Part shown: positions 48,905-59,599 of the stretch, piece by piece
How the letters are laid out: the number at the start of each line of letters is the position of its first letter
How positions within the stretch are numbered: the first letter of the stretch is position 1
Source of the DNA: Rickettsiales bacterium
Lineage (GTDB): Bacteria > Pseudomonadota > Alphaproteobacteria > Rickettsiales > UBA998
NCBI GenBank assembly: GCA_024304995.1
Contig: JAMWZD010000001.1
Span: 385,472-449,471 of the forward strand
DNA: 64,000 bases
Direction: 5' to 3'
Notes under the pieces: model-generated
The model's database searches: none
The model's input: only the letters and a program-made list of their open reading frames with translations
What the model was told of the DNA's origin: nothing
Translations under genes and position numbers: made by a program

Positions 48905-50215
48905 ATGAAATCACAAAAAATTATTATTCGGTTTGATCAGGTTTGCGATCAGAACAACGGCGTAATCAAGCGCTACATCGGATTTGTGCAAGCTAAATAC
49001 TTAATAGACTTAATAGAGATAGCTAATCTTGATGCTAACCCTAGATCATCAAAAGTTGGTTCTGTAACTGATGATATTATTGAGAGCATAGAAAAAACTA
49101 CTGATATTTTCCCCTTCAAAACTAAAGGTATATTAGTGTCTGTTTCAAAGCCTCCAAAAGAGCTAGAGCGAAAACGGTTTGAATTTGAGTTTGAAGATAA
49201 TCAATTTGATGGCATATTAGATGGTGGACATAATACTTTAGCCATCGCTATTTATATATTGTATAAAGCTGTCGAGGATCATAAAGCGATTAGAAAAATC
49301 AAAAGATGGCAAGATTTAGAAGAACGATGGATTGATTATAAAGATGAAGTTCAAAAAATTAAAGATACTTTAGATTTTCTTGTACCTATTGAAATATTAG
49401 TTCCAAATGACCAAACAGAAGAAGTGGTAGAACAATTTAAAAAGTCGATATTAGATATATGTGCGGCGCGTAATAATAATGTCCAACTAACAGTTGATAC
49501 GAAAGCCAATGCAGCAGGACATTATGAAATAATAAAAGATGTTGTTGATCCCACACTAGAAAAAGAAATTATTTGGAAAACCAATACGGAAGGACGTATT
49601 CCTGTAAGAGATTTGGTTGCTTTAACCTGGGTGCCATTACTGGAGTTAGAGTTGGAAGGCAAAGTTCCGACCATATCACCAGTTCAACTTTACAGTTCAA
49701 AAGCAAAATGCATGCAAAATTTTGTAAAGCTAATGGAGAGCCCGGATGTTTCAACCGAAAAAGAAGGTAGATATACGTTGAAAAATAGTCAAGTTGAGAG
49801 TGCTTTAAAAATGTTGGAGGACATGCCAAAACTGTATGACTTAATATACGAACTATTTCCAGGCGCTTATAATAAGCATGGAGGAAAGTTTGGACGTATA
49901 AATGCTGTTAAAGAAAAGCAAAAAAGTCAGCCAAAAACACCTTTCTATTACAGAGAAGTTGATATGAGCGTTCCAGAAGGTTTTATTGTACCACTAATTT
50001 ATGGTACATCAGCTCTGATTACTTCAAAAAACGGACGGCTCGCTTGGAAAGAAGATCCTGAAAAATTTATAAGAAAAAACATTAGTAATATAATTGCTAA
50101 TTATAAAACATTACTAGAGGCATTTAATTTTGATCCTCAAAAAGTAGGAAAAAATAGTGGCTCTTATACTTTAGCAAAACAGCAATTTGAGTTTTGCTTA
50201 TTACAAAATCAGTAA
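48905..50215 (+). CDS. AIPR-like (abortive infection phage resistance) protein
   Basis: 436 aa. LDANPRSSKVGSVTDDIIESIEKTTDIFPFKTKGILVSV followed by ILDGGHNTLAI matches my recollection of the AIPR pattern (NxR...I..T...F...NNGIT...NGxQT). GGAG lies 8 nt upstream of the ATG. Very AT-rich. Confidence 0.55.
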   Translation: MKSQKIIIRFDQVCDQNNGVIKRYIGFVQAKYLIDLIEIANLDANPRSSKVGSVTDDIIESIEKTTDIFPFKTKGILVSVSKPPKELERKRFEFEFEDNQFDGILDGGHNTLAIAIYILYKAVEDHKAIRKIKRWQDLEERWIDYKDEVQKIKDTLDFLVPIEILVPNDQTEEVVEQFKKSILDICAARNNNVQLTVDTKANAAGHYEIIKDVVDPTLEKEIIWKTNTEGRIPVRDLVALTWVPLLELELEGKVPTISPVQLYSSKAKCMQNFVKLMESPDVSTEKEGRYTLKNSQVESALKMLEDMPKLYDLIYELFPGAYNKHGGKFGRINAVKEKQKSQPKTPFYYREVDMSVPEGFIVPLIYGTSALITSKNGRLAWKEDPEKFIRKNISNIIANYKTLLEAFNFDPQKVGKNSGSYTLAKQQFEFCLLQNQ

Positions 50216-52093: not shown

Positions 52094-52202
52094 CTTTGTG
52101 TCTATAATAATAAAGGTCTGAAATCTTTATAAAAAAGAAAATAAGATTAATCAAGCATATTTATTCATGGTTTTTTTAATGGTTTTGCGCCACAATAGCC
52201 CC

Positions 52203-52913
52203 ATGAATTATAATCCCGTTATCTGCGCTATTGACACCACCAACATCCCCGAAGCCTTGCAACTGGTGCGCAGCGTCTCGCCTTATGTGGGGGCGGTGAA
52301 GCTGGGGCTGGAATTTTTTGTGGCGCACGGCGCGGAAGGGGTGAAATTGTTTGACCATTTCAATATCCCCGTCTTTCTGGATTTGAAATTTCATGACATT
52401 CCGAACACCGTTGCCAAAGCCATTGAAGCCACTGCAGGCATCAACACCTTCATGATGACCGTGCATAGCTCAGGCGGGCGCACCATGTTGCAACGCGCAG
52501 TGGAAGCCTCTGCCAGCGTGGCGGAAACCACAGGAAAAACAAGACCATATGTGGTGGGCGTGACTGTACTAACCAGCATGGATCAGGATGATCTCTCCAT
52601 CATTGGCGTGCGGGACATGGTGGATGCACAGGTGAAACGCTTAGCTGACTTGGCGCAAAGCGCGCATCTGGACGGGGTGGTGTGTTCGTCTTATGAAATA
52701 GACATGCTGCGGCGCGAATGTGGCAATGATTTCCTGCTCGTCGTCCCCGGCATCCGCCCCGAAGGCAGCGCCAGGGGAGACCAAAAACGCATCATGACCC
52801 CACGCGAAGCTCTCGACAAAGGCGCAGACTATCTGGTGATTGGGCGACCGATTACACAAGCGGAGGAGCCAGAACGGGCGGCAGAGGCGATTGCGCGGGA
52901 GTTGGGTGTTTAG
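52203..52913 (+). CDS. pyrF: Orotidine 5'-phosphate decarboxylase
   Basis: The internal ATG gives MNYNPVICAIDT. LDLKFHDIPNTV and VIGRPIT motifs. Confidence 0.9.
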   Translation: MNYNPVICAIDTTNIPEALQLVRSVSPYVGAVKLGLEFFVAHGAEGVKLFDHFNIPVFLDLKFHDIPNTVAKAIEATAGINTFMMTVHSSGGRTMLQRAVEASASVAETTGKTRPYVVGVTVLTSMDQDDLSIIGVRDMVDAQVKRLADLAQSAHLDGVVCSSYEIDMLRRECGNDFLLVVPGIRPEGSARGDQKRIMTPREALDKGADYLVIGRPITQAEEPERAAEAIARELGV

Positions 52914-52927
52914 AAAACGTTGTAAAT

Positions 52928-53980
52928 CTAGAAATCTTCTATTTCTTTTGCATCTTCTTTTTTTAAAGCTCTAAGCCTTACCATTCGCTCGTCTCCCAAA
53001 GATGTTAAAGTCCAATATGCTGAAGTATCTTGTATGCTCCTCTTCTTAATACTTTCTTTTATTAAACAAAGTGCTCTGAGCTGTATTATAATTGTATCTA
53101 TGTAATGATTTGCAACTATAGTTTTATCAACGTTCAGTTCTTTATAAGGGTGCTCGTAACAAAAATTAGCGACTTGTCCTAAAAAGTTCTCTATTTTTTT
53201 TCTCAACGCAAAATCCCTTATTTCGTTTATCATGCACGGAGAAATATTCACAAAGATATAATCCCAGCTTACATCAATTTGTATTTTGTGTTTGATACTT
53301 TCTGCATACATTCCTTTATAAAACTTAAGTGTAACTTCTACTGTAAACTTGTCCTTACCTTGCGCTAAATCATTGATATTTTCAGGCGTTGCAGAATTTG
53401 ATTTTGCAATTTTATTTTCTAAATCTGAAATTGTACTTTTTAATTGTAAAATTTCTTTCAATGTAGACTCTTTTGGAACCAAGTCTGCCTTGACCCACCC
53501 TATAGCAGGTTTACGTTTAATTGTTTTAGTTACACCCAATATAACTTGAGATTGTAAACCATCCGCATCTGCCCAATAAACACAGCTATGCTTACTTTCT
53601 ATTTTTTTTCTAAATTCGACGAGTTTTTTTAAAAGTTCTGGGTCTTTTTCGGTTTTACCTGCTGGAATTGCATCTGGGTCTTTATGCAACAAAGGAATAA
53701 CTGCCTTCTTTTTAGAAACCGCATAATCATATTCTTTCTCAGTATAACCTATACCCTCTTTATCAGTTGAGCCATAACGTCCACCAATAATAAGCAAATA
53801 ATAGTCCGATGCATCAATTACATCTTTTATCAAATCCCATGATGAATCATCAGTTGCAGGAAACAACTCCATGCCAGCAGGCATATGCTCCAATTCAAGA
53901 ACTGACTTAATAACATTCTGTCGTTCTTCTACCAAATCAACAAAAGTCGATGATATAAATATTTGATATTTCTTGTCCAT
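52928..53980 (-). CDS. DUF4062-domain protein (TIR/nucleoside-deoxyribosyltransferase-like N-terminal domain + coiled coil + unknown C-terminal domain)
   Basis: Start at rc ATG 53978-53980: MDKKYQIFISSTFVDLVEERQNVIKSVLELEHMPAGMELFPA...YYLLIIGGRYGS...GYTEKEYDYA matches the DUF4062 consensus (FISStf.DL..eR...mE.F.a...G.rYG..TE.Ey). Extremely AT-rich. Confidence 0.7.
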   Translation of the reverse strand: MDKKYQIFISSTFVDLVEERQNVIKSVLELEHMPAGMELFPATDDSSWDLIKDVIDASDYYLLIIGGRYGSTDKEGIGYTEKEYDYAVSKKKAVIPLLHKDPDAIPAGKTEKDPELLKKLVEFRKKIESKHSCVYWADADGLQSQVILGVTKTIKRKPAIGWVKADLVPKESTLKEILQLKSTISDLENKIAKSNSATPENINDLAQGKDKFTVEVTLKFYKGMYAESIKHKIQIDVSWDYIFVNISPCMINEIRDFALRKKIENFLGQVANFCYEHPYKELNVDKTIVANHYIDTIIIQLRALCLIKESIKKRSIQDTSAYWTLTSLGDERMVRLRALKKEDAKEIEDF

Positions 53981-54121
53981 GAGCGAAACTTTTTTTGAAA
54001 TGAATAAAACGCAATTATGACGATATAGCAATATTTTTGAGTAATTAACCCTTTGATAAAGCGTATCGCTTATATTACATTGGTTTTGAACAAACGCACG
54101 CACTTAAGAGAAGGATGCATT

Positions 54122-57004
54122 ATGAGCGCACAGACAGAATCCGCATGGGAACAATTTGCTGAGTCACAATATCTTTACGGCGCGAACAGCCTGTATATTG
54201 AAGAAGTCTTCAAACTTTACTCGGAAGACCCCGAGCAGGTGGACCCTGAATGGCGCGAGTTTTTCAAGAATTTTCAGGATGGGCTGGAAGAACATGAGCC
54301 ATCCTGGGCGGAAGATACCAGCGGCATTGTCGGCGTACTCGACCCTGAAGAGAAAAAGGAAATTGCTGCAAAAGAAAAGCAAATCCGCGCGAAGGATGAC
54401 ACCGCCATTTTGCACTCGATTCGTGCTTTGCAGCTGATTCATGCATATCGCGTGCGCGGGCATTTGAAAGCGAAGATTGATCCGCTGGAGAAATCTGACG
54501 ATAACCGCAAAAAGCAACATCAGGAATTAAACCCACTAAGCTATGGTTTCACGCGGGAGGATTACACGAAAGAGATTTTCCTCGGCGGGACGCTGGGTCG
54601 CCAGAGTGCGACGCTCAACCAGATTTTGAACATTCTGCAACAGACCTATTGCCAGACGATTGGTGTGGAGTTTATGCATATTCAATATCCTGATCAGAAA
54701 GCATGGATTCAGGAAAAATTTGAGAAAATGCAGGGCAAACCGCATATTTCACCAAAAGATAAGCGTGAGATTCTGGCAGATTTAATTGAAGTGGAAGCGT
54801 TTGAAGAATTTCTGCAAACGAAATATCCTGGCATGAAGCGCTTCTCCATTCAGGGGGGGGATGCAATGCTGCCTGGTCTGCAATCCACCATCCATACGGC
54901 TTCCCGCCTCGGAGTGAAGGAAATTGTGATTGGGATGCCGCATCGCGGGCGCATGAACGTGCTGACGAACATCATGAAAAAGCCCTATCCTGAAATGTTT
55001 TCACTTTTCCACGGCAACATGGATTTCCCTGAAAGCGTGAACAGCTCTGGTGACGTGAAATATCATATTGGTGTCTCAGCTGACCGTGACATGCCTGACG
55101 GCAAAAAATTGCATTTGTCACTCACCGCCAACCCGTCACATCTTGAAGCAGTGAATCCTGTGGTGTGCGGAAAAGTGCGCGCGAAGCAGGATCAGCGCGC
55201 GGACAAGGAAAAAGAAGAAGTGATGGGCTTAATGCTGCATGGCGATGCCGCCTTTGCAGGGCAAGGCGTTGTGCCTGAAACGCTCTCACTTTCAGAGCTT
55301 CGCGGATACCGCACTGGCGGTTCATTGCACATTATTGTGAACAACCAGATTGGTTTCACCACCAGCCCGAAATTCTCGCGCTTCACGCCTTATCCGTCTG
55401 ATGTGGCGAAAATGGTGGCTGCGCCTATTTTCCATGTGAACGGGGAAGATCCTGAAGCGGTGGTCTATGCGTGCCGTCTGGCAACGGAGTTTCGCCAGAA
55501 ATTCAAGCGTGATGTGGTGGTGGATATTTTCTGTTATCGTCGATATGGGCATAATGAAGGGGATGAGCCGATGTTCACTCAGCCTTTAATGTATCAGGAA
55601 ATTAAAGCGAAAAAGTCCCCTGCGCGGATTTATGCAGACGTGCTGGTCTCTCAAGGAGTGATGAAAGAAGAAGATGTGAAAGCCGAATTTAACCGCTTTA
55701 ATGAAATGTTTGAAGCGCAGTTTGACACCGCACGCGACCATAAGCCAAACAAGGCAGACTGGCTGGAAGGCGCTTGGTCTGACATGAAAGAAGCGGAAGA
55801 TCACGGCAAACGCACCTCACCTGATACGGGAGTAGACAAAGACGTGCTGAAAAATCTTGCCACGCAGCTGGGCAAAATTCCGCAGGACTTTAATGTTAAT
55901 AGCAAGGTGAAACGCATCATCAAAGCGCGCACTGAAGCCGTCTTATCTGAAGAAGGGATGGATTGGGCAATTGGTGAGCATTTAGCATTTGCCACCTTGC
56001 TCAATGATGGGTATGGCGTGCGCCTGAGCGGGCAGGATTCGCGCCGTGGCACATTCTCGCATCGTCATTCCGTTTTTATTGATCAGGAAAATGAAAAGCG
56101 ATATACACCGCTGAACCATCTGAAAGGTGTGAAAAAGAAATATGAGGTGATTGACAGTTCACTATCAGAATTTGCCATTCTGGGCTTTGAATATGGCTAT
56201 TCTCAGGCAGAACCCAACGCGCTGACCATTTGGGAAGCCCAGTTTGGGGACTTTGCCAACGGTGCGCAGATTATGATTGATCAGTTTATTGCCTCAGGTG
56301 AAATTAAATGGCTGCGCATGTCTGGTCTGGTCATGTTGCTGCCGCACGGCTATGAAGGGCAAGGCCCTGAACATAGCTCCGCGCGACTGGAGCGTTTCCT
56401 GCAACTTTGCGGGGAAGATAATATGCAGGTGGTGAATTGCACCACACCTGCCAACTTCTTCCACGTGCTGCGCCGTCAGTTGCACCGCAAATTCCGCAAA
56501 CCGCTGATTGTGATGACACCAAAATCGTTGCTGCGTCATAAACGTGCAGTCTCCACTCTGGATGATTTTGCCACAGGCACGAAATTCAGCAAAGTATACG
56601 GTGAAGTAAGTGCGTTGCAAGCAGACAAGGACATCAAAAAAGTGATTTTGACGAGCGGAAAGGTCTATTATGATTTGCTGCAAGCACGTGAAGATGCGGG
56701 CATTGATGACATCGCCATTGTGCGCGTGGAACAATATTATCCGTACCCTGCTGCTCAGGTGGAAGAGCAACTCTCGCGCTATCCAAACGCAAAAGTGGTT
56801 TGGGTACAGGAAGAGCCGAAAAATATGGGCGCGTGGACGTTTATTGAGCCCTATATTGAACAGTCTCTCACCACAATAGGACGCGAAAGCTGCCGCCCAA
56901 CCTACGTGGGTCGCAAAACCGCCGCCTCCCCCGCCGTGGGTTATCTGAAGATTCATGAACGTGAGCAGGCAGCATTGGTGAATGAGGCGTTGGGGATTAA
57001 ATAA
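54122..57004 (+). CDS. sucA: 2-oxoglutarate dehydrogenase E1 component
   Basis: ATG 54122 gives MSAQTESAWEQFAESQYLYGANSLYIEE. Later motifs include MPHRGRMNVL, LHGDAAFAGQGVV and LLPHGYEGQGPEHSSARLERFLQ. Confidence 0.95.
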   Translation: MSAQTESAWEQFAESQYLYGANSLYIEEVFKLYSEDPEQVDPEWREFFKNFQDGLEEHEPSWAEDTSGIVGVLDPEEKKEIAAKEKQIRAKDDTAILHSIRALQLIHAYRVRGHLKAKIDPLEKSDDNRKKQHQELNPLSYGFTREDYTKEIFLGGTLGRQSATLNQILNILQQTYCQTIGVEFMHIQYPDQKAWIQEKFEKMQGKPHISPKDKREILADLIEVEAFEEFLQTKYPGMKRFSIQGGDAMLPGLQSTIHTASRLGVKEIVIGMPHRGRMNVLTNIMKKPYPEMFSLFHGNMDFPESVNSSGDVKYHIGVSADRDMPDGKKLHLSLTANPSHLEAVNPVVCGKVRAKQDQRADKEKEEVMGLMLHGDAAFAGQGVVPETLSLSELRGYRTGGSLHIIVNNQIGFTTSPKFSRFTPYPSDVAKMVAAPIFHVNGEDPEAVVYACRLATEFRQKFKRDVVVDIFCYRRYGHNEGDEPMFTQPLMYQEIKAKKSPARIYADVLVSQGVMKEEDVKAEFNRFNEMFEAQFDTARDHKPNKADWLEGAWSDMKEAEDHGKRTSPDTGVDKDVLKNLATQLGKIPQDFNVNSKVKRIIKARTEAVLSEEGMDWAIGEHLAFATLLNDGYGVRLSGQDSRRGTFSHRHSVFIDQENEKRYTPLNHLKGVKKKYEVIDSSLSEFAILGFEYGYSQAEPNALTIWEAQFGDFANGAQIMIDQFIASGEIKWLRMSGLVMLLPHGYEGQGPEHSSARLERFLQLCGEDNMQVVNCTTPANFFHVLRRQLHRKFRKPLIVMTPKSLLRHKRAVSTLDDFATGTKFSKVYGEVSALQADKDIKKVILTSGKVYYDLLQAREDAGIDDIAIVRVEQYYPYPAAQVEEQLSRYPNAKVVWVQEEPKNMGAWTFIEPYIEQSLTTIGRESCRPTYVGRKTAASPAVGYLKIHEREQAALVNEALGIK

Positions 57005-57045: not shown

Positions 57046-57703
57046 ATAAGATAATAAGGAACTACCGCCTATGGCGGTACGGCTAGCGTAGTTATACAAA
57101 TTATGCAAGAAACCTCTTTGCTTGAGCCATTGGAGTGGTTTGAGGAATCAAACAAAGAGGTTTTTATTATGTCAGAAATTAGAAGATTATCTCACAGTCG
57201 CTGGGAATGCAATTATCATGTGGTATTTATTCCAAAATACCGCCAGAAACGGATATATGGCGATGTTCGCAATGAATTACGTCAAGTGTTTCATGATCTG
57301 TGTCACCGTAAGGAATGTCGCATTATTGAAGGTCACCTGATGTCCGACCATGTGCACATGCTTATCAGCATACCACCGAAATATTCTGTAGCACATATAG
57401 TAGGTTACTTAAAGGGGAAGACCGCCCTACATTTAGCGCAGAAATATGGACGTAGGAGGAAATATCGAGGCTATAGTTTCTGGGCGCGAGGGTATTTTGT
57501 ATCTACTGTAGTTGCAGACGAACAGGTCGTTAGACGTTACATTCGCAATCAGGAGAAAACGGACAAGCAGTACGACCAAATGTCCTTGTTCACTGAACCC
57601 AATAATAGTAAGTAACAAAACCACTTCCAGTGGTGCAAGCAAAGCGTTACAGACCTCCACCTCTGGTGGAGGTCATTGAATCTTTCGGTTTGTTTTAAGC
57701 TGG
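57046..57703 (+). mobile_element. IS200-type insertion sequence (IS200/IS605 family, tnpA only); ends approximate
   Basis: The Y1 HUH transposase gene is flanked by subterminal hairpins taccgcc-tat-ggcggta (57063-57079) and gacctccacc-tct-ggtggaggtc (57652-57674). No tnpB. Confidence 0.75.
57169..57615 (+). CDS. tnpA: IS200/IS605 family Y1 (HUH) transposase TnpA
   Basis: From ATG 57169 (GAGG 8 nt upstream): SHSRWECNYHVVFIPKYRQK...SDHVHMLISIPPKYSV...GYLKGKTA...FWARGYFVSTV. Close in pattern to Salmonella IS200 TnpA (HTRWNCKYHIVFAPKYRR...DHIHML...FWCRGYYVDTV). Confidence 0.9.
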   Translation: MSEIRRLSHSRWECNYHVVFIPKYRQKRIYGDVRNELRQVFHDLCHRKECRIIEGHLMSDHVHMLISIPPKYSVAHIVGYLKGKTALHLAQKYGRRRKYRGYSFWARGYFVSTVVADEQVVRRYIRNQEKTDKQYDQMSLFTEPNNSK

Positions 57704-57787: not shown

Positions 57788-59599
57788 GTGATGAGTGAAC
57801 AAGCCAGCATAGCCAATATTGATATTCAGCCAGATGACCCTGAATGGCTGGTGCTAAAGAAATTTTGTGAGACATTTGATTCTAAACGCATGAAAGAAAA
57901 ATACGCCTGTTCTAAAACTCACAAAATACTTGATGATAATGCTTCTCGCAGAAACGGCTTTATTTCTTGGAATTTTGTATGCTTTTTTACTGTATCGAAT
58001 GAAGCGCAACAACGTATTGCTCCTGAACTAAAACGCTGGAGCCCTTGGCTTTATTCAATATTAGAAAATGTTCTAAATGACCCTTCATACCAAAATGATC
58101 TTAATAATTATTATAACTCATTTATAGATATTCGTAACAAAAGCTACACTTTGGATATGGCAATCTCTATAATTGAAGGAAAGCTTAATAAACATAGCTT
58201 AGATTATGAAATGCCACCGCTTTCACGAATATGCAATATAGAAACTAAATATTTATTTAAGGATGGTACACAGTTAGATTTTTCTGATTACATATTTTTA
58301 TGTGAATTAGGTTTTTCTGGCAACAAAAACAATCCCTATCGCGCCATAGAAGAAAAAAAAGAATCAAATATATTTAAAGCAGCGACGAAACATACCAAAA
58401 ATTTTAGTTTAAAACGCAATTACTGTTATGGTGGGATATATTTCGGTGTATGCGGATTTGAAAAGATAAATCTAAATGGTCTTCATACAACAAATCTTCA
58501 CTTTATATGCAATGAAGCTAACTATATAACGTTGGCTAATATCAAATGTCATTGGTTTAAGCACGAAACTGACAACACTAATAGTATAGATAAATTAGAA
58601 AAAACCGATATTCCTTTCTTATTTATACATAATATATCAAATAAATTTGAACATATAGATATATCTAATCGGCGCATTCGATTATCAATAGATAGTAACA
58701 CGGAAGTCAGAACGTTAAATTTCTTGAATGTAGTTATTGAGAATGACGTTCAATTTGCAAATTTAGAACTTGAGCACGCAACATTTAGCAGTGTTATATT
58801 TGAATCTGATTTTTCTTTTTTGCAAAACACCGTAGAGAAAACTACATACTTCAGGCATTGCAGCTTTAAAGAATCCTCTAATTTCAAAGGCAGTAAGTTT
58901 TCATGTAATGAACTAAATGAAAAATCATTATCCAATAGAGATGAATTGCTGTCTCCTTCTTTCATCAATTCAAATTTTCAATCGGTTCTAAATTTGAAAG
59001 ACACTAATTTTCATGCTCCTCCTCATTTTGAGGGAGTAGAAGCAGATTGTGTGTTATTCGATGAAAAGTCATCCTTCATCAACCACCCTAGCAAAGACCC
59101 AGAACTTGCTGCATCAGCATGGGCATCGTTAGTGCGGCTGGCAGAGCATACGGGCAATATGCGGATGCGTCAGTTATTTCACGCACGCATGATGGAAAAC
59201 GAAAAACGTATGGCAAGCGAAAAAAGTCATGGCTTTTTCTATCATGTATTTCGTATATTAGGAAGCGGCAGAAATACGCTAGTTCCTATAGCATTCTTGC
59301 TTTTGTCTTTTATATGCTTTGGATTGATTTATATGACAAGCTATCTTGCGATAACACCTGAAAAGATAGCGCCACTATATGCAAATGCATTTGATAATGG
59401 ATTTGCACTATCTATGCAGCACACCGCACCCTTCTTTCCAACTGAAAAAGCACTATTGAAAAATTTGCTTCTCCCCTTCAAAGAAAGTCCTATAAACTAT
59501 TTCATCAATTTAGCCCGCTTCGTTCAAACGATTCTCTCAATAGGCTGCATCTTCATGTTCGGTCTCTCCCTCCGCAACCGCTTCCGCATCAAAACCTAG
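57788..59599 (+). CDS. Degenerate pentapeptide-repeat (beta-helix)-like protein with C-terminal transmembrane helices
   Basis: 603 aa. The middle region has F/L-periodic repeats (VQFANLELEHATFSSVIFESDFSFLQNTV..TYFRHCSFKESSNFKGSKFS). C-terminus is ILGSGRNTLVPIAFLLLSFICFGLIY...ILSIGCIFMFGLSLRNRFRIKT. GTG 57788 or ATG 57791 start. AT-rich. Confidence 0.55.
   Translation: MMSEQASIANIDIQPDDPEWLVLKKFCETFDSKRMKEKYACSKTHKILDDNASRRNGFISWNFVCFFTVSNEAQQRIAPELKRWSPWLYSILENVLNDPSYQNDLNNYYNSFIDIRNKSYTLDMAISIIEGKLNKHSLDYEMPPLSRICNIETKYLFKDGTQLDFSDYIFLCELGFSGNKNNPYRAIEEKKESNIFKAATKHTKNFSLKRNYCYGGIYFGVCGFEKINLNGLHTTNLHFICNEANYITLANIKCHWFKHETDNTNSIDKLEKTDIPFLFIHNISNKFEHIDISNRRIRLSIDSNTEVRTLNFLNVVIENDVQFANLELEHATFSSVIFESDFSFLQNTVEKTTYFRHCSFKESSNFKGSKFSCNELNEKSLSNRDELLSPSFINSNFQSVLNLKDTNFHAPPHFEGVEADCVLFDEKSSFINHPSKDPELAASAWASLVRLAEHTGNMRMRQLFHARMMENEKRMASEKSHGFFYHVFRILGSGRNTLVPIAFLLLSFICFGLIYMTSYLAITPEKIAPLYANAFDNGFALSMQHTAPFFPTEKALLKNLLLPFKESPINYFINLARFVQTILSIGCIFMFGLSLRNRFRIKT

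Follow-up and report, generated by a model that had tools for sequence, protein, structure and literature searches.

Within a 64,000-nucleotide stretch of contig JAMWZD010000001.1 from an uncultured Rickettsiales bacterium (assembly GCA_024304995.1, positions 385,472–449,471; hereafter the window), a minus-strand gene lying between pyrF and sucA encodes a 350-residue protein. By family membership and architecture, this protein belongs to the Swarozyc type among the DUF4062 single-gene systems, as a divergent member. The gene converges on pyrF, and a 14-nucleotide (nt) spacer (AAAACGTTGTAAAT, 52914–52927) separates the pyrF stop codon, which ends at 52913, from its own, which begins at 52928. 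On the other side, the start codons of the gene and sucA are 141 nt apart. The G+C content of the gene is 33.0% (25% at third codon positions, GC3), compared with 45.2% for the window, 55% for pyrF and 49% for sucA. An earlier inspection of the DNA and its translated open reading frames (ORFs; the sequence-only reading) had described a minus-strand ORF of 350 amino acids (aa) in an AT-rich block, convergent with pyrF across 14 nt. Our analysis agrees on each of these points, and the hand counts given there, 10/60 G+C at 53401–53460 and 35/60 at 54901–54960, are exact. An alternative, longer ORF with a GTG start reaches 54103. The motif MDK(R/K)YQ is the start of all homologues, indicating that the real start is the ATG at 53980 and not that of the GTG frame.

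From end to end, the protein is a homologue of KpSwz, the founding Swarozyc member, described in Klebsiella pneumoniae by Osinski et al. (bioRxiv 10.64898/2026.05.01.722283). A phmmer search of all PDB chains returned KpSwz as the sole match (10wc, 11cq and 11cv; E = 9.1e-65), with an alignment spanning residues 1–340 of the query and 2–323 of the 326 chain residues. In a global alignment the two proteins are 52% identical over residues 1–170, 33% over 171–200 and 28% over 201–350 (41.5% overall), and a profile of the core only matched KpSwz at E = 3.7e-60. Because the core alone might carry the full-length alignment, we built a second profile restricted to the C-terminal auxiliary (AUX) domain from the C-terminal columns of 36 family members and compared it with KpSwz. 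Such a family profile was required, since a single-sequence AUX search against the PDB did not reach significance for KpSwz (E = 0.12). The AUX-only profile matched KpSwz residues 204–322 colinearly (E = 2e-9 when scaled to a database as large as the PDB sequence set), demonstrating that the C-terminal domains are homologous as well. Conversely, KpSwz could be aligned end to end with each of the 105 family members, at 32–44% identity.

The N-terminal part of the protein matched the Pfam family DUF4062 (PF13271) with E = 1.3e-28 and 99.5 bits. With E-values allowed up to 1, DUF4062 was the sole Pfam family in the protein; neither a nucleoside deoxyribosyltransferase (NDT) or TIR family nor a fused NACHT/STAND NTPase was found. 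In the AlphaFold model of the full-length protein (predicted local distance difference test score, pLDDT, 78.6), a core of alternating strands and helices runs to residue 156 and the TIR-like fold reaches approximately residue 165. Foldseek comparison of the core with the PDB retrieved the TIR domains of RRS1, AbTir, SARM1 and SPARTA TIR-APAZ (probability 0.9–1.0); the PDB library used was older than the KpSwz entries. In the alignment, the predicted catalytic glutamate, E83, faces the alanine of the E97A substitution in the deposited KpSwz chain. The conserved pair G161–W162 is colinear with the KpSwz segment AIGWVRAD, in which W176 marks the core–stalk junction, and is followed by a predicted long helix in the position of the KpSwz stalk.

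Beyond the helix, the C-terminal domain is predicted to fold as a β-hairpin followed by a PadR-like winged helix. The hairpin strands (residues 211–222 and 227–238 in the AlphaFold models) precede helices and a two-stranded wing, and the winged-helix core includes a variable segment (residues 261–290) and conserved wing residues (R314, S315, D318, Y322 and W323). A model of the AUX domain alone was predicted with a pLDDT of 86.7 and a predicted template modelling (pTM) score of 0.80; Foldseek aligned it with PadR/LmrR/MarR-type regulators in the PDB (probability 1.0, target TM 0.55–0.65). These results refine the domain boundaries of the sequence-only reading. Its DUF4062 assignment stands firmly, whereas the match that it extended to about residue 150 covers only residues 6–87 in the 82-position Pfam model. 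The segment that it took for a coiled coil (LKEILQLKSTISDLENKIAK, residues 174–193) indeed lies inside the long helix of the AlphaFold model. The remainder of about 190 residues that it could not assign is in fact about 150 residues long (199–350) and is the homologue of the KpSwz AUX domain. The features of the locus are collected in Table 1.

Table 1 Coordinates of the Swarozyc-type gene, its predicted domains and its flanks (positions in the window)
Feature	Position	Strand	Basis
Swarozyc-type protein coding sequence, 350 aa plus stop, ATG start, TAG stop	52928..53980	-	ORF list, translation, full-length KpSwz match
DUF4062/TIR-like NAD+-hydrolysing (NADase) domain (putative), residues 1–165	53486..53980	-	Pfam, KpSwz core identity, model, Foldseek
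E83 codon, predicted catalytic glutamate, motif TEKEYDY	53732..53734	-	Alignment with KpSwz E97A chain
Predicted long helix, residues 174–196, equivalent of KpSwz helical stalk	53393..53461	-	AlphaFold model, colinearity with KpSwz stalk
Predicted β-hairpin of the AUX domain, residues 211–238, tip G223-M224-Y225	53267..53350	-	Models, KpSwz alignment, entropy
Predicted winged-helix core of the AUX domain and C-terminal helix, residues 239–340	52961..53266	-	AUX profile, model, Foldseek
pyrF, orotidine 5'-phosphate decarboxylase, conserved left flank, convergent	52179..52913	+	Pfam OMPdecase, E = 6.9e-56
sucA, 2-oxoglutarate dehydrogenase E1, conserved right flank, divergent	54122..57004	+	Pfam E1_dh, Transket_pyr, OxoGdeHyase_C
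Strain-specific cargo, pyrF stop to shared sucA upstream region	52914..54032	.	Comparison with L085

Conservation was profiled as mean column entropy across the 105 family members. Two regions are conserved, the core (1.1 bits) and the winged helix at residues 291–340 (1.3 bits), and two are hypervariable, the hairpin at residues 208–238 (2.8 bits, with a peak of 3.4 at 221–230) and residues 261–290 (~3.0 bits). F8, W48, E83 and W162 are each at least 97% conserved, and the window protein retains every residue conserved to this degree; at columns conserved to at least 85% it deviates at four, mostly conservatively (K4, A93, K164 and C305). In the 36-sequence alignment, Y84 and the wing residues R314, S315, D318, Y322 and W323 (KKRS..D...YW) are invariant. 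In the sequence alignment, the hairpin falls on the hairpin anchor of KpSwz, with its tip at W238/Y239, and by its position the segment 261–290 is likely the counterpart of the KpSwz α-loop-β module. Collectively, the entropy pattern fits a conserved effector and a conserved assembly scaffold combined with fast-evolving recognition elements.

The window protein thus shares with KpSwz the order of DUF4062/TIR-like NADase core, helical stalk, β-hairpin and winged-helix AUX domain, keeps both the catalytic glutamate and the tryptophan of the core–stalk junction, and is likewise a single-gene unit with a signature of horizontal transfer. It differs in its host, an uncultured alphaproteobacterium and not an enterobacterium, and in the variable segment, which is 11 residues longer in the window clade. 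Similarity to other DUF4062 and TIR proteins is more limited. Eva01, the Evangelion protein of Staphylococcus aureus, confers defence with loss of NAD+ and needs F11, E87-Y88, W162 and its AUX region; Swarozyc has been placed as a DUF4062 lineage separate from Evangelion (Ibarra-Chavez et al., bioRxiv 10.64898/2026.06.25.731849). The Eva01 type, found on S. aureus pMW2/pSAS-type plasmids, has the same single-gene design of core plus AUX region and is 36% identical to the window protein over residues 4–188 of the DUF4062 core, where in our reading of the alignment F8, E83-Y84 and W162 are the counterparts of Eva01 F11, E87-Y88 and W162. BLASTP against the pSAS Eva01-type protein found nothing significant past residue 188, indicating that the Eva01 auxiliary region is unrelated to that of the window protein; Eva01 is in addition tied to phage recombination functions and not to the portal. 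The DUF4062-NACHT/STAND proteins (human TEP1, NWD1/2 and NPHP3, and bacterial TEP1-like proteins) have the DUF4062 TIR-like domain in common with the window protein, and TEP1 is an active NADase (10.64898/2026.05.01.722283). Unlike them, the window protein carries neither an NTPase domain nor WD40 or TROVE, and an NTPase gene is likewise missing from its surroundings; the adjoining genes are pyrF and sucA, in line with the earlier remark that an NTPase partner is lacking. Canonical TIR effectors (Thoeris ThsB, SPARTA TIR-APAZ, AbTir and SARM1) are alike in fold by Foldseek and, by analogy, may share the NAD+-consuming abortive logic, whereas the window protein has no Pfam TIR match.

The family is large and widely distributed. 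A protein database search gave more than 5,800 matches, of which the top 120 were all 346–402 aa long with query coverage of 87–100% (at least 95% in all but one). Proteins of the window clade are ~365 aa long and ~50% identical across many bacterial phyla. For genomic context, at least 557 loci were located in species-representative genomes, again spanning many bacterial phyla; 80 were kept, and 72 of these were used for neighbour and G+C counts. Two of the 80 are labelled archaeal: full-length relatives with 40–41% identity occur in a Heimdallarchaeota and a Methanoflexus metagenome-assembled genome (L053 and L059), a label that may reflect binning. Relatives are also encoded on 240 IMG/VR contigs. 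Among plasmids, 201 of 221 matches were Staphylococcus records, which among those listed matched in the core only and are of the Eva01 type; near-full-length copies occur on four plasmids. One of these four, on Acinetobacter junii plasmid pAJ_068-3 (L087, 6001–7041), is 44% identical both to the window protein and to KpSwz. An in-frame stop interrupts it, and its annotation is that of a truncated 285-aa coding sequence. A reverse-transcriptase-family gene and an ISNCY transposase flank it, MspI restriction-modification lies beyond the transposase, and a RelE/ParE toxin is also near.

We further searched 1.84 billion cluster representatives with the AUX domain only, which yielded 483 matches. 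In these, the AUX domain follows the DUF4062 core at about residue 200, as checked in eight proteins and judged for the rest by length and match position. Two rare variants were seen, one with leucine-rich repeats after DUF4062 and AUX (P0468, 654 aa) and one in which a weak canonical TIR_2 match replaces DUF4062 ahead of AUX (P0502, 418 aa). A match to a PYRIN-repeat protein (P0381) was rejected as spurious.

Genomic context points to a gene that travels alone, as no neighbour family within 6 kb recurred in more than four of the 72 loci. The gene is also compositionally distinct at most loci: across phyla, its G+C content is a median of 9 points below that of its flanks, with a gap exceeding 5 points at 54 of the 72 loci. 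One example is Methylobacterium adhaesivum (L078), with 40% in the gene versus 70% in the flanks. Neighbours were called with a longest-ORF caller; a GC3-based caller overlooked 21 of the 72 homologues because they are compositionally foreign. The nearest defence and mobile neighbours, counted per family, comprise components of Type I, II and III restriction-modification, a CBASS-type cyclase, PDC-S05/S08, integrases, transposases and TrbL. By published counts, ~20% of the DUF4062 genes are located within defence islands, and more than half adjoin a defence gene (Osinski et al., 10.64898/2026.05.01.722283).

To place the locus among its close relatives, we compared the window with two contigs, L084 and L085, which were found through enolase homologues (an exact-match search with PyrF gave the same contig only). 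Their enolases are 90% (L084) and 98% (L085) identical to that of the window, and pyrF is conserved in both. Against named Rhodospirillales/Azospirillum-type sequences, the window enolase reaches 74–79% identity at most. The Swarozyc-type gene is absent at the site in each. Homology between the window and L085 ends at the pyrF stop and restarts at 54033, upstream of sucA, which delimits the strain-specific cargo of the window. At the same position L085 (ERZ27264536 k141_693238) carries 1.7 kb of other cargo with 32% G+C, encoding PDC-M59A (336 aa, E = 6.5e-88) and the Fic-domain protein PDC-M59B, a candidate defence pair in PADLOC (313–1907). This replacement of one defence-type cargo by another indicates that the slot is a small defence hotspot. 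In L084, unrelated genes follow pyrF and a restriction-modification system is nearby.

The cargo borders showed no target-site duplication, inverted repeat, flanking repeat beyond chance, tRNA or integrase, so a classical integrative element is unsupported. The simplest explanation would be that cargo is exchanged by recombination through the conserved flanks. On the sucA side, window positions 54033–54253, covering the 5' end of sucA and the region upstream of it, are 96–98% identical to L085 1–230, with 97.6% for the flank, whereas pyrF and enolase show a lower DNA identity of 84–87% to L085. This excess of identity hints at a recent recombination tract beside the cargo.

On these grounds, horizontal acquisition of a single-protein anti-phage system of the Swarozyc type is the probable explanation for the gene. 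What is known of KpSwz gives this proposal its content. KpSwz has a TIR-like NADase in its DUF4062 domain, with ADP-ribose and nicotinamide as the only products and no cyclic signal; the single gene confers defence by abortive infection, and this defence needs both E97 and the AUX domain (10.64898/2026.05.01.722283). At rest, KpSwz is assembled into intertwined dimers, in which helical stalks are present and the active sites are occluded. Its AB dimer interface is distinct from that of canonical TIR effectors (10.64898/2026.05.01.722283). Bas14 phages that escape KpSwz are mutated in the portal, the portal alone switches on the NADase in vitro, and up to 13 AUX domains surround the dodecameric portal (10.64898/2026.05.01.722283). 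In the KpSwz AUX domain, a helix-turn-helix/winged fold carries an "alpha-loop-beta" module and a "hairpin anchor", with the aromatic tip W238/Y239, for insertion into the portal, and the winged helix serves protein–protein assembly and not DNA binding (10.64898/2026.05.01.722283).

By analogy with KpSwz, the source of the proposed NADase activity, abortive infection and, in particular, portal trigger, the window protein would be held in uninfected cells as an autoinhibited oligomer of intertwined dimers. Upon infection, the AUX domain would bind a multimeric phage protein, which in the case of KpSwz is the portal dodecamer, and multiple copies would align side by side via the rigid winged-helix core. 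The stalks would then realign and switch on the TIR-like domains, NAD+ would be hydrolysed, yielding ADP-ribose plus nicotinamide, and the infected cell would die or arrest ahead of phage release. The hypervariable hairpin (residues ~211–238) and the segment 261–290 may set which phage is recognised. A one-protein sensor-effector role in defence had already been proposed in the sequence-only reading, and full-length homology to KpSwz, an NADase with a portal-binding AUX domain, supports it. The same reading had regarded the architecture as uncharacterised, a view superseded by 2026 preprints on Swarozyc, Evangelion and NIR and by solved structures; NIR is reportedly the name used in a third 2026 preprint for the DUF4062 single-protein architecture.

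Several observations weigh against a Swarozyc-type defence function. No PADLOC v2.0 model exists for the protein and NCBIfam gave no useful match, both libraries being older than the 2026 descriptions of these systems, and the literature on Swarozyc-type systems consists of preprints only. Scans for promoters and terminators around the gene found nothing above chance. Many homologues have housekeeping genes as nearest neighbours, including those for tRNA synthetase, fumarase, GAPDH and histidine biosynthesis. The sequence-only reading had named a missing DUF4062 match, or homologues consistently in housekeeping surroundings, as findings that would speak against a role in defence; the DUF4062 match is strong, and the contexts are mixed, in part defence or mobile and in part housekeeping. 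Finally, the AUX domain departs from that of KpSwz in three respects: its identity is only 28%, its hairpin tip reads M224-Y225 in place of W238/Y239, and the window clade has a conserved 9-residue basic wing loop (KKRSxxDTxxY) that is missing in KpSwz.

These three departures suggest that the trigger may differ from that of KpSwz. In the strongest alternative, the protein would belong to the same family and have the same NADase output, with its conserved basic wing, or the winged helix as a whole, sensing nucleic acid or some non-portal phage protein. The closest AUX folds are DNA-binding PadR/MarR regulators, consistent with such a role, and a precedent exists in Eva01, whose escaper mutations fall in RecA/UvsX-like genes and which binds overhang DNA (10.64898/2026.06.25.731849). 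However, the AUX domains of the window protein and KpSwz are homologous and colinear, variability is focused on the hairpin that aligns with the KpSwz anchor and on the likely α-loop-β counterpart, and the winged helix of KpSwz itself mediates protein assembly. We regard it as unlikely that the window clade senses a non-portal signal, perhaps nucleic acid or one linked to replication, through its PadR-like winged helix. If it did, Swarozyc-type proteins would constitute an NADase family with several distinct trigger classes.

Two further alternatives dispute the defence function itself. The gene could be a silent or decaying passenger, intact in appearance and without current function in its host. 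The promoter and terminator scans at chance level would fit this, as would the lack of an obvious Shine-Dalgarno sequence by eye in the printed region upstream of the gene and the in-frame stop in the A. junii plasmid homologue. Against it, 350 codons run uninterrupted in AT-rich DNA where stops arise easily, every family-invariant residue is retained, and an identical protein is present in two further assemblies, making a passenger very improbable. We give hardly any credence to a housekeeping or regulatory protein, such as an NDT-like enzyme or a winged-helix transcription factor linked to nucleotide metabolism: the gene does adjoin pyrF, NDT enzymes are distant relatives of DUF4062 (10.64898/2026.05.01.722283), the C-terminus is PadR-like and numerous homologues adjoin housekeeping genes, but the convergent orientation precludes a shared operon with pyrF, the 33% G+C gene stands in a 45% genome, two related genomes lack it, one of them with different cargo in its place, no neighbour is conserved, Pfam gives no match to NDT or TIR, and defence has been demonstrated for its homologue KpSwz.

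Other AT-rich genes are present in the window. A second single-gene insertion (48905–50215, plus strand; 436 aa, 33% G+C, GC3 24%) sits between the genes for enolase and a Cys/Met pyridoxal phosphate (PLP) enzyme, a junction that lacks it in L084 and L085. Its product has no Pfam, PADLOC or PDB match and ~1,866 homologues of ~450 aa, with about one-tenth of the top 120 flagged as PF10592 (AIPR, abortive-infection protein); it is probably another stand-alone defence-type gene. Downstream of sucA, an IS200-type Y1 transposase gene (57103–57615, plus strand) is followed by an AT-rich ORF of 603 aa (57788–59599, plus strand; 35% G+C) with a weak pentapeptide-repeat match alone and no PADLOC or PDB match. 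Reading of its sequence suggests hydrophobic C-terminal segments.

Our results provide an evidence-based annotation for a "DUF4062 domain-containing protein" and, by extension, for thousands of full-length homologues of ~365 aa, as Swarozyc-type NAD+-depleting abortive-infection proteins, with the function assigned by analogy with KpSwz. They also extend the range of the family to uncultured Alphaproteobacteria and to archaeal-labelled genomes, and identify the pyrF–sucA interval as a small chromosomal slot whose defence cargo differs between sister strains.

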